NCBI GenBank assembly: GCA_030390025.1 | Contig: CM059432.1 | Coordinates: forward strand, 32,676,001-32,740,000 | Length of the DNA: 64,000 nucleotides | Source of the DNA: Squalus acanthias | Taxonomy: Eukaryota | Reading direction: 5' to 3' | Shown: positions 1-12,113 of the stretch, piece by piece | Numbering within the stretch: the first letter of the stretch is position 1 | How the letters are laid out: each line of letters begins with the position of its first letter | Program-made: the position numbers and the translations under genes | The notes under the pieces: generated by a model | The model's database searches: none | What the model saw: only the letters and a program-made list of their open reading frames with translations | Told to the model about the DNA's origin: nothing

Positions 1-2120
1 ATAATTTCCACATGAGCCAACTGTAACCACATAGAATATTTAACCAAAAGTACAGCATGGGCTCAATAAAAGGGAACTTTCAGAATTGCAATTAACGTAA
101 TGTTCTAATCACCTAACAGGAGGTAGGCAGCAGAAGAAAGGGGCATTTGATGTAAAGTCAAATGTAAATAGGCCATTCAGCCCAATTTATGTTTCAGAAT
201 AATGCAGGCCATTTGCATTTACTTTAACATTGGCATCGAGCCAATAATCACTACATTTCTCAATGAATAAGGAATTACTCCTTTTTCCACCAAGTCTGAA
301 TACAGCACAGCAAGTGGCAGCCTACTGAATAGGCGACTTCACGAATCACTATTCCTCAAATTGTATTGAGAAAAGAATGAAGAAATAAAGAAGGGAGGGA
401 AGAAGGAAAGAAAGCTGTATTTGAATAGTGCCTCATCATGTCTCTAGACATCCCAGAGCTCTTGATGTACATTTAATTAGTTTTTTTTTTAAGTTTACCA
501 ACTATTATTATGTAGGTAAACCTGGCAGCTAAATTATGTACAGCAAAGTCCCACAACAGCAAATTAAATGAATGACAAGGTTGCATTTGATTAACTGCTT
601 CTTTAGCTTACAATTGTGTATTCTAGCCACTCCCTGGTTTCATACTAAAAAGAAACCTTCCAAATCCACTTAAATAATCTCTTAAGATTGAAGAACTTTT
701 TAGCTTAGTTTGATAGATTAGCGGTAAATCTTCAAATATGAGAGGGGTAAAGTACAAAATAGATATATTCTTATAAAATAAAAAGGGTGCACATCAAAGA
801 ATAGATTTCTGTGGATAAATAGATTAAAACTAAAGCAAAACTTACAAAGGAGGCATAAGATAAAATTCAGGCTAACAATACTAAAAATAATCATGAGGAG
901 CAGGGAAAGTGTAGTGAGGAGGTGAAAAGGAGATTATAAGGACTAAAAGGGAATATAAAAAAGGCTAGCAGAAAAGATTTAAAAAAAAGAAAGCTTTTAT
1001 AAGTATATATAAGGAAAAAGAATAGTTAGAGATGGTAGGACTGCTCAGGGATAAAGAGGGAGTCTAACTGTAAAGGATGAAGGTATGGCGGAGACACGAA
1101 GAACATAGGAACAGGAGTAGGTCATTTAGCCCCTCGAGCCTGTTCCGCCATTCAATGAGATCATGGCTGATCTGCGACCGAACTCCATATACTTTGGCTC
1201 ATATCGCTTAATACCTTTGGTTAACAAAAAGCTATAAATCTCAGATTTAAAATGAACAATTGATCTAGCATCAATTGCCGTTTGTGGAAGAGAGTTCCAA
1301 ACTTCTACTACCCTTTGTTTTCTAATTTCACTCCTGAAAGGTCTGGCTCTAATTTTTAGACTATGCCCCCTAGTCCTAGACTCCCCAACCAGCGGAAATA
1401 GTTTCTCTCTATCTGCCCTATCTGTTTCCCTTAATATCTTGAAAACTTCAATCAACTCATCCCTGAACCTTCGAAATTCCAGGGAATACAACCCTAATCT
1501 GTGTAATCTTTCCTTGTACTTTAACCCTCGAGTCCAGATATCAATCTGGCAAACCTACACTGTACTCCCGCCAAGGCCAATATACTGTATCCTTCCTAAG
1601 GTGTGGTGCCCAGAACTGCTCACAGTACTCCAGGTGTGGTCTAATCAGGGTTTTGTATAGGTGCAGCATAACTTCTACCCCCTTATTCTAGTCCTCTAGA
1701 TATAAAGACCAGCATTCCATTAGCCTTTTGGATTACTTTCTTTATCTGTTCATGACATTTTAATGATCTATGTACCTGGACCCCCAAGTCTCTTTGGACC
1801 TCCACTGTTTTTAACTTTTCACCATTTAGAAAGTACCCTGTTCTATCTTTTTTAGGTCCAAAGTGGATGATCTCACATTTGCCTACATTGAAATCCATTT
1901 GCCACAGTTTTGTCCATTCATTTAATCTATCAATATCCCGTTGTAATTTTATGCTTTCATCTACACTGCCGCCTATCTTTGTGTCATTGGCAAATTTGGA
2001 TCTGTGGCTTTCTATCGCATCATCTAAGTCATTAATAAATACAGTGAAAAGTTGAGGCCCCAACACAGATCCCTGTGGGTTGCCACTAGTCACATCCTGC
2101 CAATTAGAGTACCTGCCCAT

Positions 2121-2314
2121 TGTGGTAACACAATACAGCTTCCTGTGACTCGAACTTTATTGCATCACTTCCTGTGATTAGTCCAGGATAAATACTGGAC
2201 TGAGCAGTTGGATCCTGGAGAGGCATAGAGTAAGACCTCTTTTGTATGTAGCACCTTTTTAGTTGATTAAAGCTTACTTTAAGTTCACCACGCGTAAGGC
2301 TCATTCTTACGACA
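2121..2314 (+). repeat. 5' LTR (194 bp)
   Basis: TGTGGTAACA...CTTACGACA; identical by eye to 6368-6561; ATTAAA at 2266-2271. Confidence 0.97.
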
Positions 2315-2315
2315 A

Positions 2316-2326
2316 TTTAATCAACT
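2316..2326 (+). promoter_or_regulatory. Putative self-priming primer-binding site TTTAATCAACT
   Basis: Starts 2 nt after the 5' LTR end, lacks the TGG of tRNA PBSs, and is the exact reverse complement of LTR 2261-2271 (AGTTGATTAAA). Confidence 0.65.
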
Positions 2327-2392
2327 TTGAAAAACTTCGCACTCAAACTTTTTGGACGAACTCGGAACTAAGGATCCAGGGAATCACCCATC

Positions 2393-5300
2393 ATGGAAAA
2401 CATCCTTAAACCATCGTGTCTTGACTTGGACCCAAACACCCCAGCAGCCGGTAAGGTGTGGAAACACTGGTATCGCACGTTTGACAATTTTCTCGAATAT
2501 TGCAAGGCTGATGATGACACAAAGTTGCGGATACTCATCAACTGTGTCACTCCGAATGTATTTCAGTATGTTGAGGAATGGGGCAGTTACGAGGAGGCAA
2601 TTCGGACGCTTAAAAGACTATATACTAAGACACCGAATGAGGTCTATGCCAGACATCTACTAGCTACAGCCCAACAAGGGCCGGAGGAATCCATTGATAA
2701 ATTCCTCCAAGAGCTTCGCAGACTTAGTATGGACTGTAACTTTCAGGCGGCCTCAGCTGAGCTGTACCGTGAAGAAATGATCCGTGATGCTTTCATCTGC
2801 GGGCTTGCCTCCCCATTTATACGCCAGCGTCTACTGGAAAGTAAGACACTTGAGCTTCAGAGAGCTTATGACATGGCTTGCTCTCTAGATCTGGCAAAAA
2901 GAAATGCAGACCTTTATACAGTGCCCAGACCTCGGTCTGCTGCCTTAACTACAGTCAGGCAATTTAAGAGGCCACAGGTGAACTCTATTAGGGAGGACTT
3001 TATCCCTGACGATCAATCTGATGACTTCACTGATGAAGAGGATGATGACCCCACTGTGGCAGCCTCTTGGCAATCTAAGAAATGCTTTTTTTGTGGTGAT
3101 GAGTTTCACCCTCGGAAATTCTGCCCTGCTCGCAATGCGTTTTGCAGTCATTGCAACAAAAAGGGTCATTTTGCAAAGGTTTGCCTATCAAGAGCCTCTA
3201 CGAGGGCTTATCAAGCTAAGTCCTACCGAACTGCCCCGGTAAGGGCCTATCAAGATGTTCCGGCTAAAATCTATCGTGCTTCCTCTCGGGTTTTCTCTCG
3301 AAGAAACACACCTAGAGTTTCAGCCACTCTTTGTGCAACGACACCAATTACAGCTGCTTGTCCTCAGAACCTATTCCATGCAGCTACAAAAGCATCAATT
3401 AATGGACATACTTTAGATGCCTTAATTGACTCAGGTAGCACTGATAGTTTCATTAGGGAACAGATTGTTGCAGAGTTAAAGCTACATGTTTTCCCATCGG
3501 ACCAGGCAATTGCGATGGCTCAGTCATCACTTAATACCAGAATTTCTGGCTTTTGTATGGTTGAAATAACACTTAATGGTCGCAGGTATCCCTCCACCCG
3601 GCTTTCGGTGCTCAAGGACTTATGTAGTGATCTTATCTTAGGGCTGGATTTTCAAAAGCAGCATAAGAAACTCACCATTGAGTTCGGCGGATCCAAACCT
3701 GAACTCACTATTTCTAATATACGACCTCGATTACCGTTCTGTGCATTGTCAGCAGCTTCACTGGATGAACCCTCACTGTTTACCAGTATCCCTCCTCGAT
3801 GCAAACCGATTATAACAAAGTCACGACGTTTCAGTCAGGAAGACCAGTCTTTTATTGCGGCTGAGATTTCTCGGCTTTTAGCAGAGGATATCATCGAGCC
3901 TTGTTCGTCGCCATGGCGCGCCCAGGTCGTTATTGTTAAGAACCCTCTACAACCTCACAAGAAACGGCTGTGCATTGACTATTCACAGACCATCAATCAA
4001 TATACGGACTTGGACGCATACCCATTGCCGCGCATCGATGATATGGTTAATAAACTGGCTGAGTACACGGTGTTCTCAACATATGATCTGAAAAGTGCCT
4101 ATCATCAGGTACCCTTGAAGGTCTCAGACAAGCAGTATACAGCCTTTGAAGCCAATGGACGGCTGTATCAATTTCGTCGCCTCCCCTTTGGGGTCACTAA
4201 TGGAGTGGCTGTCTTCCAGCGAGCAATGGATGACCTGGTCAAACAGGAAGACTTGAAGGATACGTTTCCTTATCTGGACAATATTACTGTCGCAGGTCGC
4301 AATCAGCGGGAACATGACGCCAATCTCCAACGATTTTGGGATGCACTCCAGCACCGTAATTTGACATTAAATGCGGCTAAATCCATTGAGTCACAACCAA
4401 CCATCAACATCCTTGGCTATTGTGTGGGCAATGGCATCATTAAACCTGACCCTGAAAGGCTTCGCCCACTCCAAGAACTCCCGCCACCTAAGAATCCGGC
4501 CTCCTTGCGCCGGGCCCTCGGCCTGTTTGCATACTATGCTCAATGGATTCCTAACTTCTCGGACCGAATCCAACCTCTACTGAAGGCCAGCACATTCCCA
4601 CTAGACACAGCGGCTGTTGCAGCCTTTAACCTCCTGAAAAAACAGTTGGAGAAAGCGGCTCTTCACTCCATCGATGAGAGTCTTCCTTTTGTCGTTGAGT
4701 GTGATGCCTCGGAGGTGGCGATCTCGGCCACTCTGAATCAGGAAGGTCGTCCGGTGGCATTTTTGTCCAGGACTTTTCAAGGGGCTGAGCTACATTATCC
4801 TCCAGTCGAGAAAGAAGCTACAGCCATCATAGAGGCAGTACGGAAGTGGACTCATCTCCTAGCTCGCCAGCACTTTACCTTAATCACGGACCAGCGATCG
4901 GTCACCTTCATGCTCGATAATCGAAAACGGACCAAAATTAAAAATAATAAAATCCAGCTTTGGCGGCTGGAATTGGCCTCTTTTGGTTACACCATCCACT
5001 ATCGACCTGGCAAGGAGAATGTGGCTCCGGATACCCTCACACGAGCATTCTGCTCCGCCATGGCACCCTCTACGCTCGTAGACATCCATGATGGGTTGTG
5101 TCATCCGGGCGTTACTCGCATGCTACACTTCGTGCGGTCCCGAAATCTCCCATTCTCTACCGGGGATGTAAAGAAGATGTGCTCGGACTGCAGAGTCTGT
5201 GCGGAATTGAAACCTCAGTTTTTCCGCCCCTCGGGTGGTATACTCATACATGCGACCCAGCCAATGCAACGGCTTAGCATCGATTTTAAGGGGCCGTTGC

Positions 5301-6349
5301 CCTCTTCAACTCGCAACACTTATCTATTGACCATGGTCGATGAGTATTCCCGTTTTCCGTTTGCCTTTCCCTGCCCCAATATGCTGACGACCACGGTTAT
5401 CAGCTGCCTTGAGCAGGTATTTGCTTTCTGTGGCATGGCATCCTATGTTCATTCGGATCGGGGCCCTTCTTTTATGTCAGGAGAACTCAAGGCCTATCTC
5501 TCGGAACGGGGTATTGCTGCCAGCAGAACGACGCCTTATCATCCGGTCGGGAATGGGCAAGTCGAGCGTTTTAACGCTATCATCTGGAATGCGGTACGTC
5601 TGGCTTTGAGATCTCGGGGCCTACCCAACCAGCAATGGGAAGCAGTACTTCCAGACGCATTACACTCCACACGGTCCCTCCTTTCGACCGCCACAAATAC
5701 GACGCCTCATGAACGGTTCTTCCGATTTCAGCGTCGCTCATCCTATGGGATATCTCTCCCGTCGTGGCTGACTGCACCGGGACCAGTGCTACTCCGAAGA
5801 TATGTCCGGGCGTCTAAGAATGACCCCCTGGTAGATGAGGTTGAGCTCACTGACGTCAACCCTACCTACGCCTATATTCGGTATCCTGACGGTCGGGAAT
5901 CTACCGTGTCATTGCGGGATCTGGCTCCCTGCCCGCCGAAACATAGAGGGACACCAGGGGATGATATTGTACCAGGCACATCTCTGGGCTCGCCAGGTGC
6001 CTCTCATCACGATCTGGATCTGACGCCGGCTGGTACCTCACTCCAGCGTGCCGACCTGGGGCAGACTGACTATGAGCCCGTCGGGGCTCGCACGCGCAGC
6101 CACGATCCACCCCGTACCATACGCTCGGAAACGGATCTGCCACAGCCCTGCCCGACACCCGTTCGGGCACCAGTACACAGTCAGGATCGTCCTGACCCCT
6201 CACAGAGCGGGCTGGATCACTCGGACTCTGGTCCACGGCCCGCGGCGGGTAAACGGGCTAGGGGCCCTCTACCGCTACGAGAACCCAAACGGGTGCGGCT
6301 CTCCCTCGTCCGACGGCTACGAAATGGAGGGAGCATCCCGGCCTCCTAA
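2393..6349 (+). CDS. Gypsy Gag-Pol polyprotein, single intact ORF of 1318 aa
   Basis: Two CCHC knuckles (CFFCGDEFHPRKFC, CSHCNKKGHFAKVC); protease LIDSGS; RT (DLKSAYHQV, LPFG, YLDN); RNase H (ECDAS, EKEA, TDQ); integrase HHCC plus D,D,E (IDFKG, HSDRG, VERFN); Pro-rich tail with no recognisable chromodomain. Confidence 0.97.
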   Translation: MENILKPSCLDLDPNTPAAGKVWKHWYRTFDNFLEYCKADDDTKLRILINCVTPNVFQYVEEWGSYEEAIRTLKRLYTKTPNEVYARHLLATAQQGPEESIDKFLQELRRLSMDCNFQAASAELYREEMIRDAFICGLASPFIRQRLLESKTLELQRAYDMACSLDLAKRNADLYTVPRPRSAALTTVRQFKRPQVNSIREDFIPDDQSDDFTDEEDDDPTVAASWQSKKCFFCGDEFHPRKFCPARNAFCSHCNKKGHFAKVCLSRASTRAYQAKSYRTAPVRAYQDVPAKIYRASSRVFSRRNTPRVSATLCATTPITAACPQNLFHAATKASINGHTLDALIDSGSTDSFIREQIVAELKLHVFPSDQAIAMAQSSLNTRISGFCMVEITLNGRRYPSTRLSVLKDLCSDLILGLDFQKQHKKLTIEFGGSKPELTISNIRPRLPFCALSAASLDEPSLFTSIPPRCKPIITKSRRFSQEDQSFIAAEISRLLAEDIIEPCSSPWRAQVVIVKNPLQPHKKRLCIDYSQTINQYTDLDAYPLPRIDDMVNKLAEYTVFSTYDLKSAYHQVPLKVSDKQYTAFEANGRLYQFRRLPFGVTNGVAVFQRAMDDLVKQEDLKDTFPYLDNITVAGRNQREHDANLQRFWDALQHRNLTLNAAKSIESQPTINILGYCVGNGIIKPDPERLRPLQELPPPKNPASLRRALGLFAYYAQWIPNFSDRIQPLLKASTFPLDTAAVAAFNLLKKQLEKAALHSIDESLPFVVECDASEVAISATLNQEGRPVAFLSRTFQGAELHYPPVEKEATAIIEAVRKWTHLLARQHFTLITDQRSVTFMLDNRKRTKIKNNKIQLWRLELASFGYTIHYRPGKENVAPDTLTRAFCSAMAPSTLVDIHDGLCHPGVTRMLHFVRSRNLPFSTGDVKKMCSDCRVCAELKPQFFRPSGGILIHATQPMQRLSIDFKGPLPSSTRNTYLLTMVDEYSRFPFAFPCPNMLTTTVISCLEQVFAFCGMASYVHSDRGPSFMSGELKAYLSERGIAASRTTPYHPVGNGQVERFNAIIWNAVRLALRSRGLPNQQWEAVLPDALHSTRSLLSTATNTTPHERFFRFQRRSSYGISLPSWLTAPGPVLLRRYVRASKNDPLVDEVELTDVNPTYAYIRYPDGRESTVSLRDLAPCPPKHRGTPGDDIVPGTSLGSPGASHHDLDLTPAGTSLQRADLGQTDYEPVGARTRSHDPPRTIRSETDLPQPCPTPVRAPVHSQDRPDPSQSGLDHSDSGPRPAAGKRARGPLPLREPKRVRLSLVRRLRNGGSIPAS

Positions 6350-6355
6350 TCTTTT

Positions 6356-6367
6356 GGGGGGGGAGAA
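6356..6367 (+). promoter_or_regulatory. Polypurine tract GGGGGGGGAGAA
   Basis: Pure purine run directly abutting the 3' LTR TG. Confidence 0.93.
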
Positions 6368-6561
6368 TGTGGTAACACAATACAGCTTCCTGTGACTCGA
6401 ACTTTATTGCATCACTTCCTGTGATTAGTCCAGGATAAATACTGGACTGAGCAGTTGGATCCTGGAGAGGCATAGAGTAAGACCTCTTTTGTATGTAGCA
6501 CCTTTTTAGTTGATTAAAGCTTACTTTAAGTTCACCACGCGTAAGGCTCATTCTTACGACA
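6368..6561 (+). repeat. 3' LTR (194 bp)
   Basis: Direct repeat of 2121-2314, preceded by the PPT. Confidence 0.97.
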
Positions 6562-6749
6562 CCCATTATCCCTACTCTCTGTCTCCTGCCGCTCAGCTAA
6601 TTTCCTAACCAGGTCAATAATTTTCCCTCAATTCCATGGGCTTCAACCTTAGTTAACAGTCTCTTATGAGGAACTTTATCAAATGCCTTTTGGAAGTCGA
6701 AATAAATTACATCCAGAGATTCCCCTGTCCACTACTATATAAACATTTT

Positions 6750-11175: not shown

Positions 11176-11593
11176 CTGTTAAGAATTGGGTGGGTGGGAA
11201 AGGGGCAAATGGGGAAGATGCACAGAACAAAACAAGGAGGAAAAGTTTAATATACGGCACAGCTTTTAGAAAATATATAAAATGATAAGACATGAACTAA
11301 GTTGAATTAGGAGAAGGAACGCAAACACATTAAGCAGTAAAATTAAGGCAGGATATATTCTCAATAAGCTACTGTAATTATATTCTAAAGGAACGATTCA
11401 CACCCAAAACCCGTCCTTTGTCTTTACACGTTGACAAACCCACTGTGTATTTCTAGCATTTTCTATTTTTATTTCAGATTTTTATCTATGCAAATACGTA
11501 GTACTAGCTTAATTGGGCTTATTTAAGTTCGTGCTATTTAAAAATATATATTTTCTAAACCCGAGATAGCACCAAACAGCTTGGAAATCAATT

Positions 11594-12113
11594 TTACTGC
11601 ATCAGTACTTTCAAATGGAAAACAAACCAACATCTCACAAAACATTTATGTCACAGCAACAGGACTAAGTTTATTTCCCCTCCCGCAACATGATATAATT
11701 TAGCATCTTCTCATTCTATTTCCAATTATGCATTTCAAAGATCACAGACGTCCTCCTTCAATTTCCAAAACCACTTCATCTGGTTTCCTCTCTCACTTCA
11801 AAAGCATCCTAAAATCTATTGCTTTAAAAGTGCTTTTGGTTCCCTCTTTCCTAATTTGTCATATGTCCTTCTCGGCCTCTTTCCTTTATAAAGCATTCTG
11901 AGACTCTGACAAAAAATTATATTACTGCATCAGTACTTTCAAATGGAAAACAAACCAACATCTCACAAAACATTCATGTCACAGCAACAGTACTAAGTTT
12001 ATTTCCCCTCCCACAACATGATATAATTTAGCATCTTCTCATTCTATTTCCAATTATGCATTTCAAAGATCACAGATGTCCTCCTCAATTTCCAAAACCA
12101 CTTCATCTGGTTT
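11594..12113 (+). repeat. ~192-bp direct duplication (11594-11786 and 11922-12113)
   Basis: Near-identical copies ttactgcatcagtac...catctggttt with a few substitutions. Confidence 0.92.

Follow-up and report, generated by a model that had tools for sequence, protein, structure and literature searches.

Covarying complementarity between the LTR and the putative primer-binding site points to self-priming in a chromodomain-less Gypsy lineage of animals

We analyzed a 64,000-nucleotide stretch of the Squalus acanthias genome (the window) and found that the intact Gypsy retrotransposon within it carries, just behind its 5′ LTR, a presumed primer-binding site (PBS) that is the exact reverse complement of a segment of its own LTR. 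An LTR-pairing primer site of this kind was found in about twenty related families in all, and the two paired segments covary among the families that were aligned. While tRNA priming is the rule for most LTR elements, our best reading of these sequences, to which we assign a probability of about 0.7, is that minus-strand synthesis would be primed by the element's own RNA in a Tf1-like manner rather than by a tRNA. Tf1-like self-priming without a tRNA was also the core of the original prediction, which had been made from the letters of the window; its architectural part stood, with the arrangement present in 26 of 31 loci and covarying, and the act of priming is what we infer from that architecture.

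The element at 2121–6561 is a complete and intact Ty3/Gypsy LTR retrotransposon of 4,441 bp (Table 1), and its LTRs have the termini TGTGGTAA...TACGACA. In the single ORF, Gag is followed by protease, reverse transcriptase (RT), RNase H and integrase, which Pfam matches placed in the Gypsy order, and from residue 1181 by a low-complexity C-terminal tail rich in Pro, Arg, Gly and Ser. A Gag with two CCHC zinc knuckles and the absence of a chromodomain had both been predicted and were both borne out, the former by regular-expression matching and the latter by a search for PF00385 at E-values of up to 0.01, which matched neither the window protein nor any of the 17 family members of an alignment termed A1 (0/17). 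The element had inserted into a minus-strand reading frame for a LINE-like RT (window 1683–2120, with a 145-aa ORF including ...FANDTKIGG...), which picks up again past the right target duplication (after 6567). Elsewhere in the window, we observed a direct repeat of 179 nt with 94% identity at 11591–11769 and 11919–12097, at a spacing of 328 bases, which was unrelated to the Gypsy element.

Table 1. Annotated features of the Gypsy element, in window coordinates
Feature	Position	Strand	Detail or basis
Target-site duplication, left copy, CCCAT	2116–2120	+	5 bp, repeated at 6562–6566
5′ LTR, TG...CA, 194 nt	2121–2314	+	100% identical direct repeat with 6368–6561
TATA-like box GATAAATA, core ATAAATACT	2187–2194	+	Sequence reading; function inferred
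5′ arm, proposed self-primer, AGTTGATTAAA	2261–2271	+	Exact reverse complement of 2316–2326
ATTAAA poly(A) hexamer, final six bases of the 5′ arm	2266–2271	+	
Small hairpin right behind the hexamer, 2272–2276 with 2280–2284	2272–2284	+	Minimum free energy folds
Second hairpin, putative U5, CGTAAG(G)/(T)CTTACG, 2293–2298 with 2306–2311	2293–2311	+	RNA folds
Single spacer base (A) separating the LTR from the PBS	2315	+	
3′ arm, putative PBS, TTTAATCAACT	2316–2326	+	Sole copy in the 64-kb window
Single intact Gag-Pol ORF, 1318 aa	2393–6349	+	
Two CCHC zinc knuckles, residues 231–244 and 251–264	3083–3184	+	Regular-expression match on the translation
Aspartic protease, residues 333–420	3389–3652	+	PF13975/PF13650
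Reverse transcriptase, residues 523–676	3959–4420	+	PF00078
RNase H, residues 742–864	4616–4984	+	PF17917/PF17919
Integrase zinc-binding domain and catalytic core	5072–5545	+	PF17921, PF00665
Polypurine tract GGGGGGGGAGAA, adjoining the 3′ LTR	6356–6367	+	
3′ LTR, 194 nt	6368–6561	+	Second 5′-arm copy at 6508–6518; PBS partner absent downstream
Target-site duplication, right copy, CCCAT	6562–6566	+	

Around the 5′ LTR, the predicted 11-nt exact reverse complement between the LTR and the bases behind it was confirmed (2261–2271, AGTTGATTAAA, against 2316–2326, TTTAATCAACT). The window element indeed lacks a tRNA-type TGG after the 5′ LTR, the CGTAAG/CTTACG hairpin expected in the intervening loop is present (2293–2298 with 2306–2311) and folds with an extra G-U pair, and the TATA-like box anticipated near 2187 was found as GATAAATA at 2187–2194. 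When the RNA of 2261–2326 was folded, the two arms formed the closing stem at −15.3 kcal/mol with a z-score of −3.64. Rfam and ARAGORN searches of the window returned no tRNA and no relevant Rfam match. No exact reverse-complement match longer than these 11 nt joined the post-LTR bases to the LTR of the same element, and this length was reached by 2 of 2000 dinucleotide shuffles of the LTR when eight offsets were allowed; judged from the window alone, the match is modestly unlikely to have arisen by chance.

Relatives of the element were abundant both within and beyond the host genome. In the 3.7-Gb host genome, a first look with a 300-base probe spanning the LTR–leader border gave at least 873 candidate copies, and all 40 of the copies that were scored were ~100% identical; the family of the window element is very young and abundant. 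A search with a 76%-identical relative (P0002) revealed a second family in the same genome. In both of its sampled copies the LTR contains CAGTTGATTAAA, and TTTAATCAACTG follows one base past the ...TGTCA end of the LTR, giving a 12-nt pairing. Among 7995 proteins scored, 1493 were related to the window Pol at an E-value of 0.001 or less, and identity ranged from 54 to 89% for the best 120 of them, nearly all lying at 57–76%. The named hosts included mussels (Mytilus), shrimp (Palaemon), a copepod (Caligus), a tunicate (Clavelina), an anemone (Actinostola), a jellyfish (Sanderia), a nematode (Trichuris) and a catshark (Scyliorhinus). For hosts as distant as molluscs, crustaceans, cnidarians, a tunicate and a nematode, an identity of 57–76% is high, and it brings to mind the horizontal transfer that has been reported for Steamer-like elements (PMC8905726).

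A scan of metagenome contigs with alignment A1 yielded 80 loci, 31 of which were judgeable in that at least 80 bases were present upstream of the Gag start. At 26 of these 31, the bases right behind the LTR end were complementary to an LTR segment located 31–66 nt upstream and, as in the second host family, the paired LTR segment usually terminated in a poly(A) hexamer. The count of 26 includes several weak cases, namely L055 (9 nt), L091 and L092 (15 nt, one mismatch), L093 (17 nt, two mismatches), and L107 and L108 (11 nt, one G-U pair); at L061 the matching arm was found only in a 3′ LTR remnant at the contig end. Five loci (L032, L052, L062, L065 and L081) were not judged, their LTR being missing or their contig rearranged. 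LTR lengths among the relatives were 85–231 nt, mostly with ...ACA ends, and the 26 paired loci fell into 18 groups with differing arm sequences. An 11-nt inverted repeat arising by chance in AT-rich sequence, as the two successful shuffles of the window LTR would allow, is a reading to which we give negligible weight, since the same arrangement stands at the same landmarks in these 18 further groups and in the second host family.

Several other features of the copies were observed. Three copies found with the LTR–leader probe on genome contig C1 (566419, 570666 and 574913) are exactly 4247 bases apart, which is the LTR-to-LTR spacing, and look like a tandem array of elements with common LTRs. 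Among the 40 scored genome copies, 38 were one step below the window's own copy (537 versus 542 bits), and the G at window position 2204, where every contig of four sequencing runs has T, looks like a private substitution in a copy that is otherwise identical. Runs X1–X14, filed under five organism codes (A–E), contained near-identical copies as measured by 50–88% of the 31-mers sampled from window 2121–3400, and these organisms may be close relatives or may point to recent horizontal spread. A second LTR subfamily (window 2163–2316; two contig records) shows 13 differences and one A inserted behind 2260, with 0 differences within the 11-nt arm at 2261–2271. At L063 (138–190 and downstream), two PBS-like arms are located at −82 and −26 from the ATG behind one LTR arm, representing either a short leader duplication or an assembly artefact.

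For the analysis of covariation, one representative each of 16 families was aligned with the arms in register (alignment A2). In the 13-bp helix that joins the LTR arm to its post-LTR counterpart, 95.7% of the 208 cells formed standard pairs, compared with 71.8% in shuffles, and 0 of 500 shuffles reached the observed value. Both sides had changed in 11 of the 13 helix pairs, with 43 doubly changed cells observed against 9.7 expected, and pairing amounted to 25–47% when the partners were slid by one to three columns. RNAalifold, unprompted, gave the same helix with 16 pairs, 14 of them with compensatory change, and the arms formed the closing stem in the RNA folds of all 16 families. Two checks had been proposed with the original prediction, and both turned out in its favor: complementarity was present in the related families (26 of the 31 judgeable loci and the second host family), and the LTR and PBS covaried across them.

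The register of A2 was the best inverted repeat of each sequence itself, which favors the structure, a bias that is mitigated by the slid controls and by a landmark-only retest that we ran for this reason. In this retest of 12 families, the alignment of the LTR pair supplied the position of the LTR end, and 10 of the 12 matched their own LTR over 11–19 nt, a length reached by at most 2 of 2000 shuffles. The two exceptions were old copies with 94–95% identical LTRs, for which 49 (L091) and 599 (L093) of the 2000 shuffles reached the match. In a cross-family matrix, each PBS matched its own LTR best except for those of the window element, L050 and L109, which have common arms, and those of the old copies L091 and L093. 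Sister families were separated by single coupled changes (L046 versus L050 and L038 versus L039).

As a point against self-priming, L034 and L089, the LTRs of which are 99.5–100% identical, carry an uncompensated PBS change at arm position 14, suggesting that only ~13 nt may be renewed by copy-back. The small hairpin after the hexamer (2272–2284) recurs in most relatives, but its pairing of 69.8% was close to the 68.3% of shuffles and was reached by 188 of 500 shuffles, and we dropped it as a conserved structure because its covariation was no higher than that of the shuffles. The second hairpin (2293–2311) was seen in the folds of some relatives only and was not alignable.

Because the arms differ among families and covary, we placed the primer site in the 3′ arm, and because the PBS changes along with each family's own LTR, we excluded a constant host tRNA as its partner. 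Priming at 2316–2333 by a host tRNA, a tRNA fragment or some other constant host RNA would follow the rule for most LTR elements and would agree with the tRNA-type PBSs assigned to published relatives. Nevertheless, we regard it as very improbable: TGG is absent behind the LTR, the PBS differs by family and tracks the LTR of the same element in a way that a constant host RNA cannot explain, and the window itself held neither a tRNA nor an Rfam match. The direct comparison covered two host tRNA species only, as ARAGORN called just tRNA-Lys(UUU) and tRNA-Cys(GCA) at those loci that were scanned among the best 63 genome tRNA matches, and these match the PBS complement over 5 nt at most. In the course of this comparison, we also observed tandem arrays of tRNA gene matches with a period of ~1.77–1.79 kb (C2208:413928–426494, C29:13254729–13265435 and C1484:21788–27198), the sampled genes of which were tRNA-Lys(UUU) according to ARAGORN.

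The position of the LTR end constrains the primer further. In any LTR element, it is the 3′ end of the minus-strand primer that fixes where U5 gives way to the PBS. Exactly one base separates the LTR from the 3′ arm in each of the 16 aligned families (the spacer being A in 14 families, T in L084 and G in L107), so the primer must end in the complement of the first bases of this arm. In 15 of the 16, the final bases of the 5′ arm are A(A/T)TAAA. As read from these alignments, the required primer 3′ end must be the poly(A) hexamer with family-specific bases upstream of it, which only the element's own RNA would fit. In addition, the 3′ arm makes up the entire leader from the LTR to the ATG in L035, L045, L050 and L107 (distance of −3 to +3), where a further PBS would not fit.

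Self-priming by the element's own RNA would be expected to proceed as follows. Transcription from the 5′ LTR would give an RNA that contains 2261–2271, with A2261 as one candidate start. This segment, the 3′ half of which is the ATTAAA hexamer, would fold back onto 2316–2326, a step for which both the pairing potential and the covariation were obtained above. By analogy with Tf1, the element's RNase H would cut after A2271, and the new 3′-OH would be extended across A2315 and U5 back to 2272 to form the strong-stop DNA; this extension is backed by the LTR end lying one base before the 3′ arm throughout the aligned families. The strong-stop DNA would then transfer to the 3′ R, plus-strand synthesis would be primed from the polypurine tract at 6356–6367, and the PBS would be regenerated as the RNA primer is copied. 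Such regeneration by copy-back would explain both the perfect arms in young copies and the single coupled changes between sister families.

The placement of the arm relative to the RNA 5′ end depends on the transcription start. A start at A2261 itself is a possibility that we hold tentatively, at somewhat below even odds. The TATA core ATAAATACT is common to the two host families, the LTRs of which are otherwise diverged, and is located 73 and 87 nt upstream of their arms. This conserved box predicts a start near 2218, ~40–55 nt upstream of the arm, in which case the primer would be internal to the RNA and would not be its first bases as in Tf1. Across the invertebrate families, we saw no TATA box whose distance from the arm was conserved. 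Contigs from the Logan assemblies of four runs break at the LTR borders as DNA does.

Self-priming with such an internal RNA primer, a variant of our best reading, would involve an R of ~70 nt and an arm 40–55 nt from the cap, with the primer carrying a 5′ flap or being freed by a second cut, and would thus differ from Tf1 in the position of the primer. Conservation of the TATA core between otherwise diverged LTRs argues for this arrangement, as does the window sequence, where no TATA-like box precedes the start of the arm at a distance of 25–35 nt. We nonetheless consider it unlikely, since the pairing halts sharply at 11–12 nt in both host families and since a long flap copied into the plus-strand strong-stop DNA should, by the retroviral scheme, block the second jump. 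L107 does have a box, TATTTAAG, 24 nt before its arm start, and in the window A2261 is surrounded by TTAGTT (2259–2264), which we take to be an initiator-like motif; both count against the internal primer.

Apart from priming, the duplex may have a second role. As the partner of the arm exists only at the RNA 5′ end, pairing may hide the 5′ poly(A) hexamer with the partnerless 3′ copy staying free. The start codon could likewise be masked in six aligned families (L035, L045, L046, L050, L082 and L107), where the end of the 3′ arm overlaps the Gag ATG or comes to within 3 nt of it. In these six, the primer–PBS duplex would sequester the AUG, and this could serve to switch between translating the RNA and reverse-transcribing it. 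A precedent is known from HIV-1, in which the 5′ poly(A) signal is occluded by a hairpin.

The duplex could be supposed to be a regulatory RNA structure only, one that conceals the poly(A) hexamer at the 5′ end, conceals a start codon that the arm overlaps, or serves packaging, with something else as the primer. The A(A/T)TAAA ends of the 5′ arms with a partner solely at the RNA 5′ end, the closeness of the 3′ arm to the ATG in the six families and the HIV-1 precedent would all suit this explanation. We consider it improbable, as the U5/PBS border is set by the primer 3′ end and in 16 of 16 families a single base lies between the LTR and the 3′ arm, and as several leaders are too short for another PBS. 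Furthermore, L084 has kept a 12-nt pairing without a poly(A) hexamer, so that masking cannot be the sole function, and regulation can coexist with priming by the element's own RNA, which remains our preferred reading.

The features of the element pointed to the Mag C-clade. According to published descriptions, this clade is metazoan-wide, with LTRs of ~174–187 nt and TGT...ACA ends, a single ORF with two zinc knuckles, and a total length of ~4.4–4.8 kb (PMC3601003, PMC8905726, PMC11046912, PMC8220671). Like SURL and Steamer of this clade, the window element has a short LTR (194 nt) ending in ...ACA and, as described for MchSLE1 (PMC11046912), one ORF that spans gag and pol, has two zinc knuckles and encodes the enzymes in the order protease, RT, RNase H, integrase. 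On these shared features, the window lineage is probably a member of the Mag C-clade (SURL/Steamer group). The PBS sets it apart: that of Steamer is TGGTGTCAGAAG, assigned to tRNA-Leu (PMC8905726), and that of MchSLE1 is assigned to tRNA-Asn (PMC11046912), whereas in the window element TGG is lacking and the PBS pairs with its own LTR. The Steamer PBS motif was found at 0 of the 160 loci searched. Eleven matches to it in viral contigs, all without pol, were rejected as chance.

The original prediction had also suggested a separate self-priming lineage in a vertebrate. The chromodomain-less Gypsy part of this suggestion held, while the vertebrate part gave way, as the lineage is, by its 57–76% Pol identity to proteins of many metazoan hosts, metazoan-wide and not vertebrate-specific. 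A full-text search, as far as the texts it covered extend, showed no assignment of self-priming to Mag, C-clade, SURL or Steamer-type elements, and an earlier mention is possible. The more far-reaching proposal is that a metazoan-wide, chromodomain-less Gypsy lineage, probably a branch of the Mag C-clade, replaced tRNA priming independently of Tf1/sushi, is active now in a vertebrate genome and uses the poly(A) hexamer as the primer 3′ end; we advance it as a proposal that falls just short of an even chance. If it is true, one duplex of 11–19 nt would set the U5/PBS border, be renewed in each cycle by copy-back from the primer, and mask the poly(A) signal at the 5′ end as well as, in certain families, the start codon. 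The choice of the 3′ end, translation and the start of reverse transcription would then be coupled.

To our knowledge, fission-yeast chromoviruses are the only elements in which self-priming has been demonstrated, and a small number of other lineages are predicted to use it. Its conserved and covarying signature in a very successful animal Gypsy lineage would mean that the choice of primer appears to have switched more than once in the evolution of LTR elements. Annotation tools that seek tRNA matches for the PBS will mislabel such elements or report spurious tRNAs, and host defenses directed against tRNA-type PBSs, such as 3′-tRNA fragments, would miss the window lineage. As the family is very young and abundant, with at least 873 candidate copies, it offers natural animal material in which the 5′ end of the RNA, the position of the cut and the strong-stop DNA could be mapped.

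The primer of Tf1 is 11 nt long, and the window arm has the same length. Self-priming has been shown for Tf1 and Tf2 of Schizosaccharomyces pombe and proposed for Tj1 of S. japonicus, the R segment pairing with the PBS and being cut off by the element's RNase H (PMC4600332, PMC5341516). The window element resembles these three in having no tRNA-type PBS, a 5′-LTR R segment complementary to the post-LTR site and a structured loop between the two. It differs from them in the absence of a chromodomain (17 of 17 members), in its animal hosts, in the LTR length of its lineage (85–231 nt) and in a primer 3′ end that would be the poly(A) hexamer itself. Among other groups, self-priming is described or predicted for the Tf1/sushi group of vertebrates, for the Tcn1 clade of plants and for TAR copia elements (PMC6317226, PMC6934838, PMC5006619), where predictions rest on a PBS that is complementary to the LTR and matches no tRNA (PMC6317226). 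The same two lines of evidence underlie our reading of the window lineage. Unlike Tf1/sushi and Tcn1, which are chromoviruses, and TAR, which belongs to Copia, this lineage is Gypsy without a chromodomain, and the chromodomain at the integrase C-terminus that marks Tf1/sushi is absent from the window element. As in the 5′ poly(A) hairpin of HIV-1, the hexamer in the 5′ R is base-paired and would be maskable at the 5′ end only. The HIV-1 hairpin is local, lies within R and has no role as a primer, whereas here the partner of the hexamer is the putative PBS.
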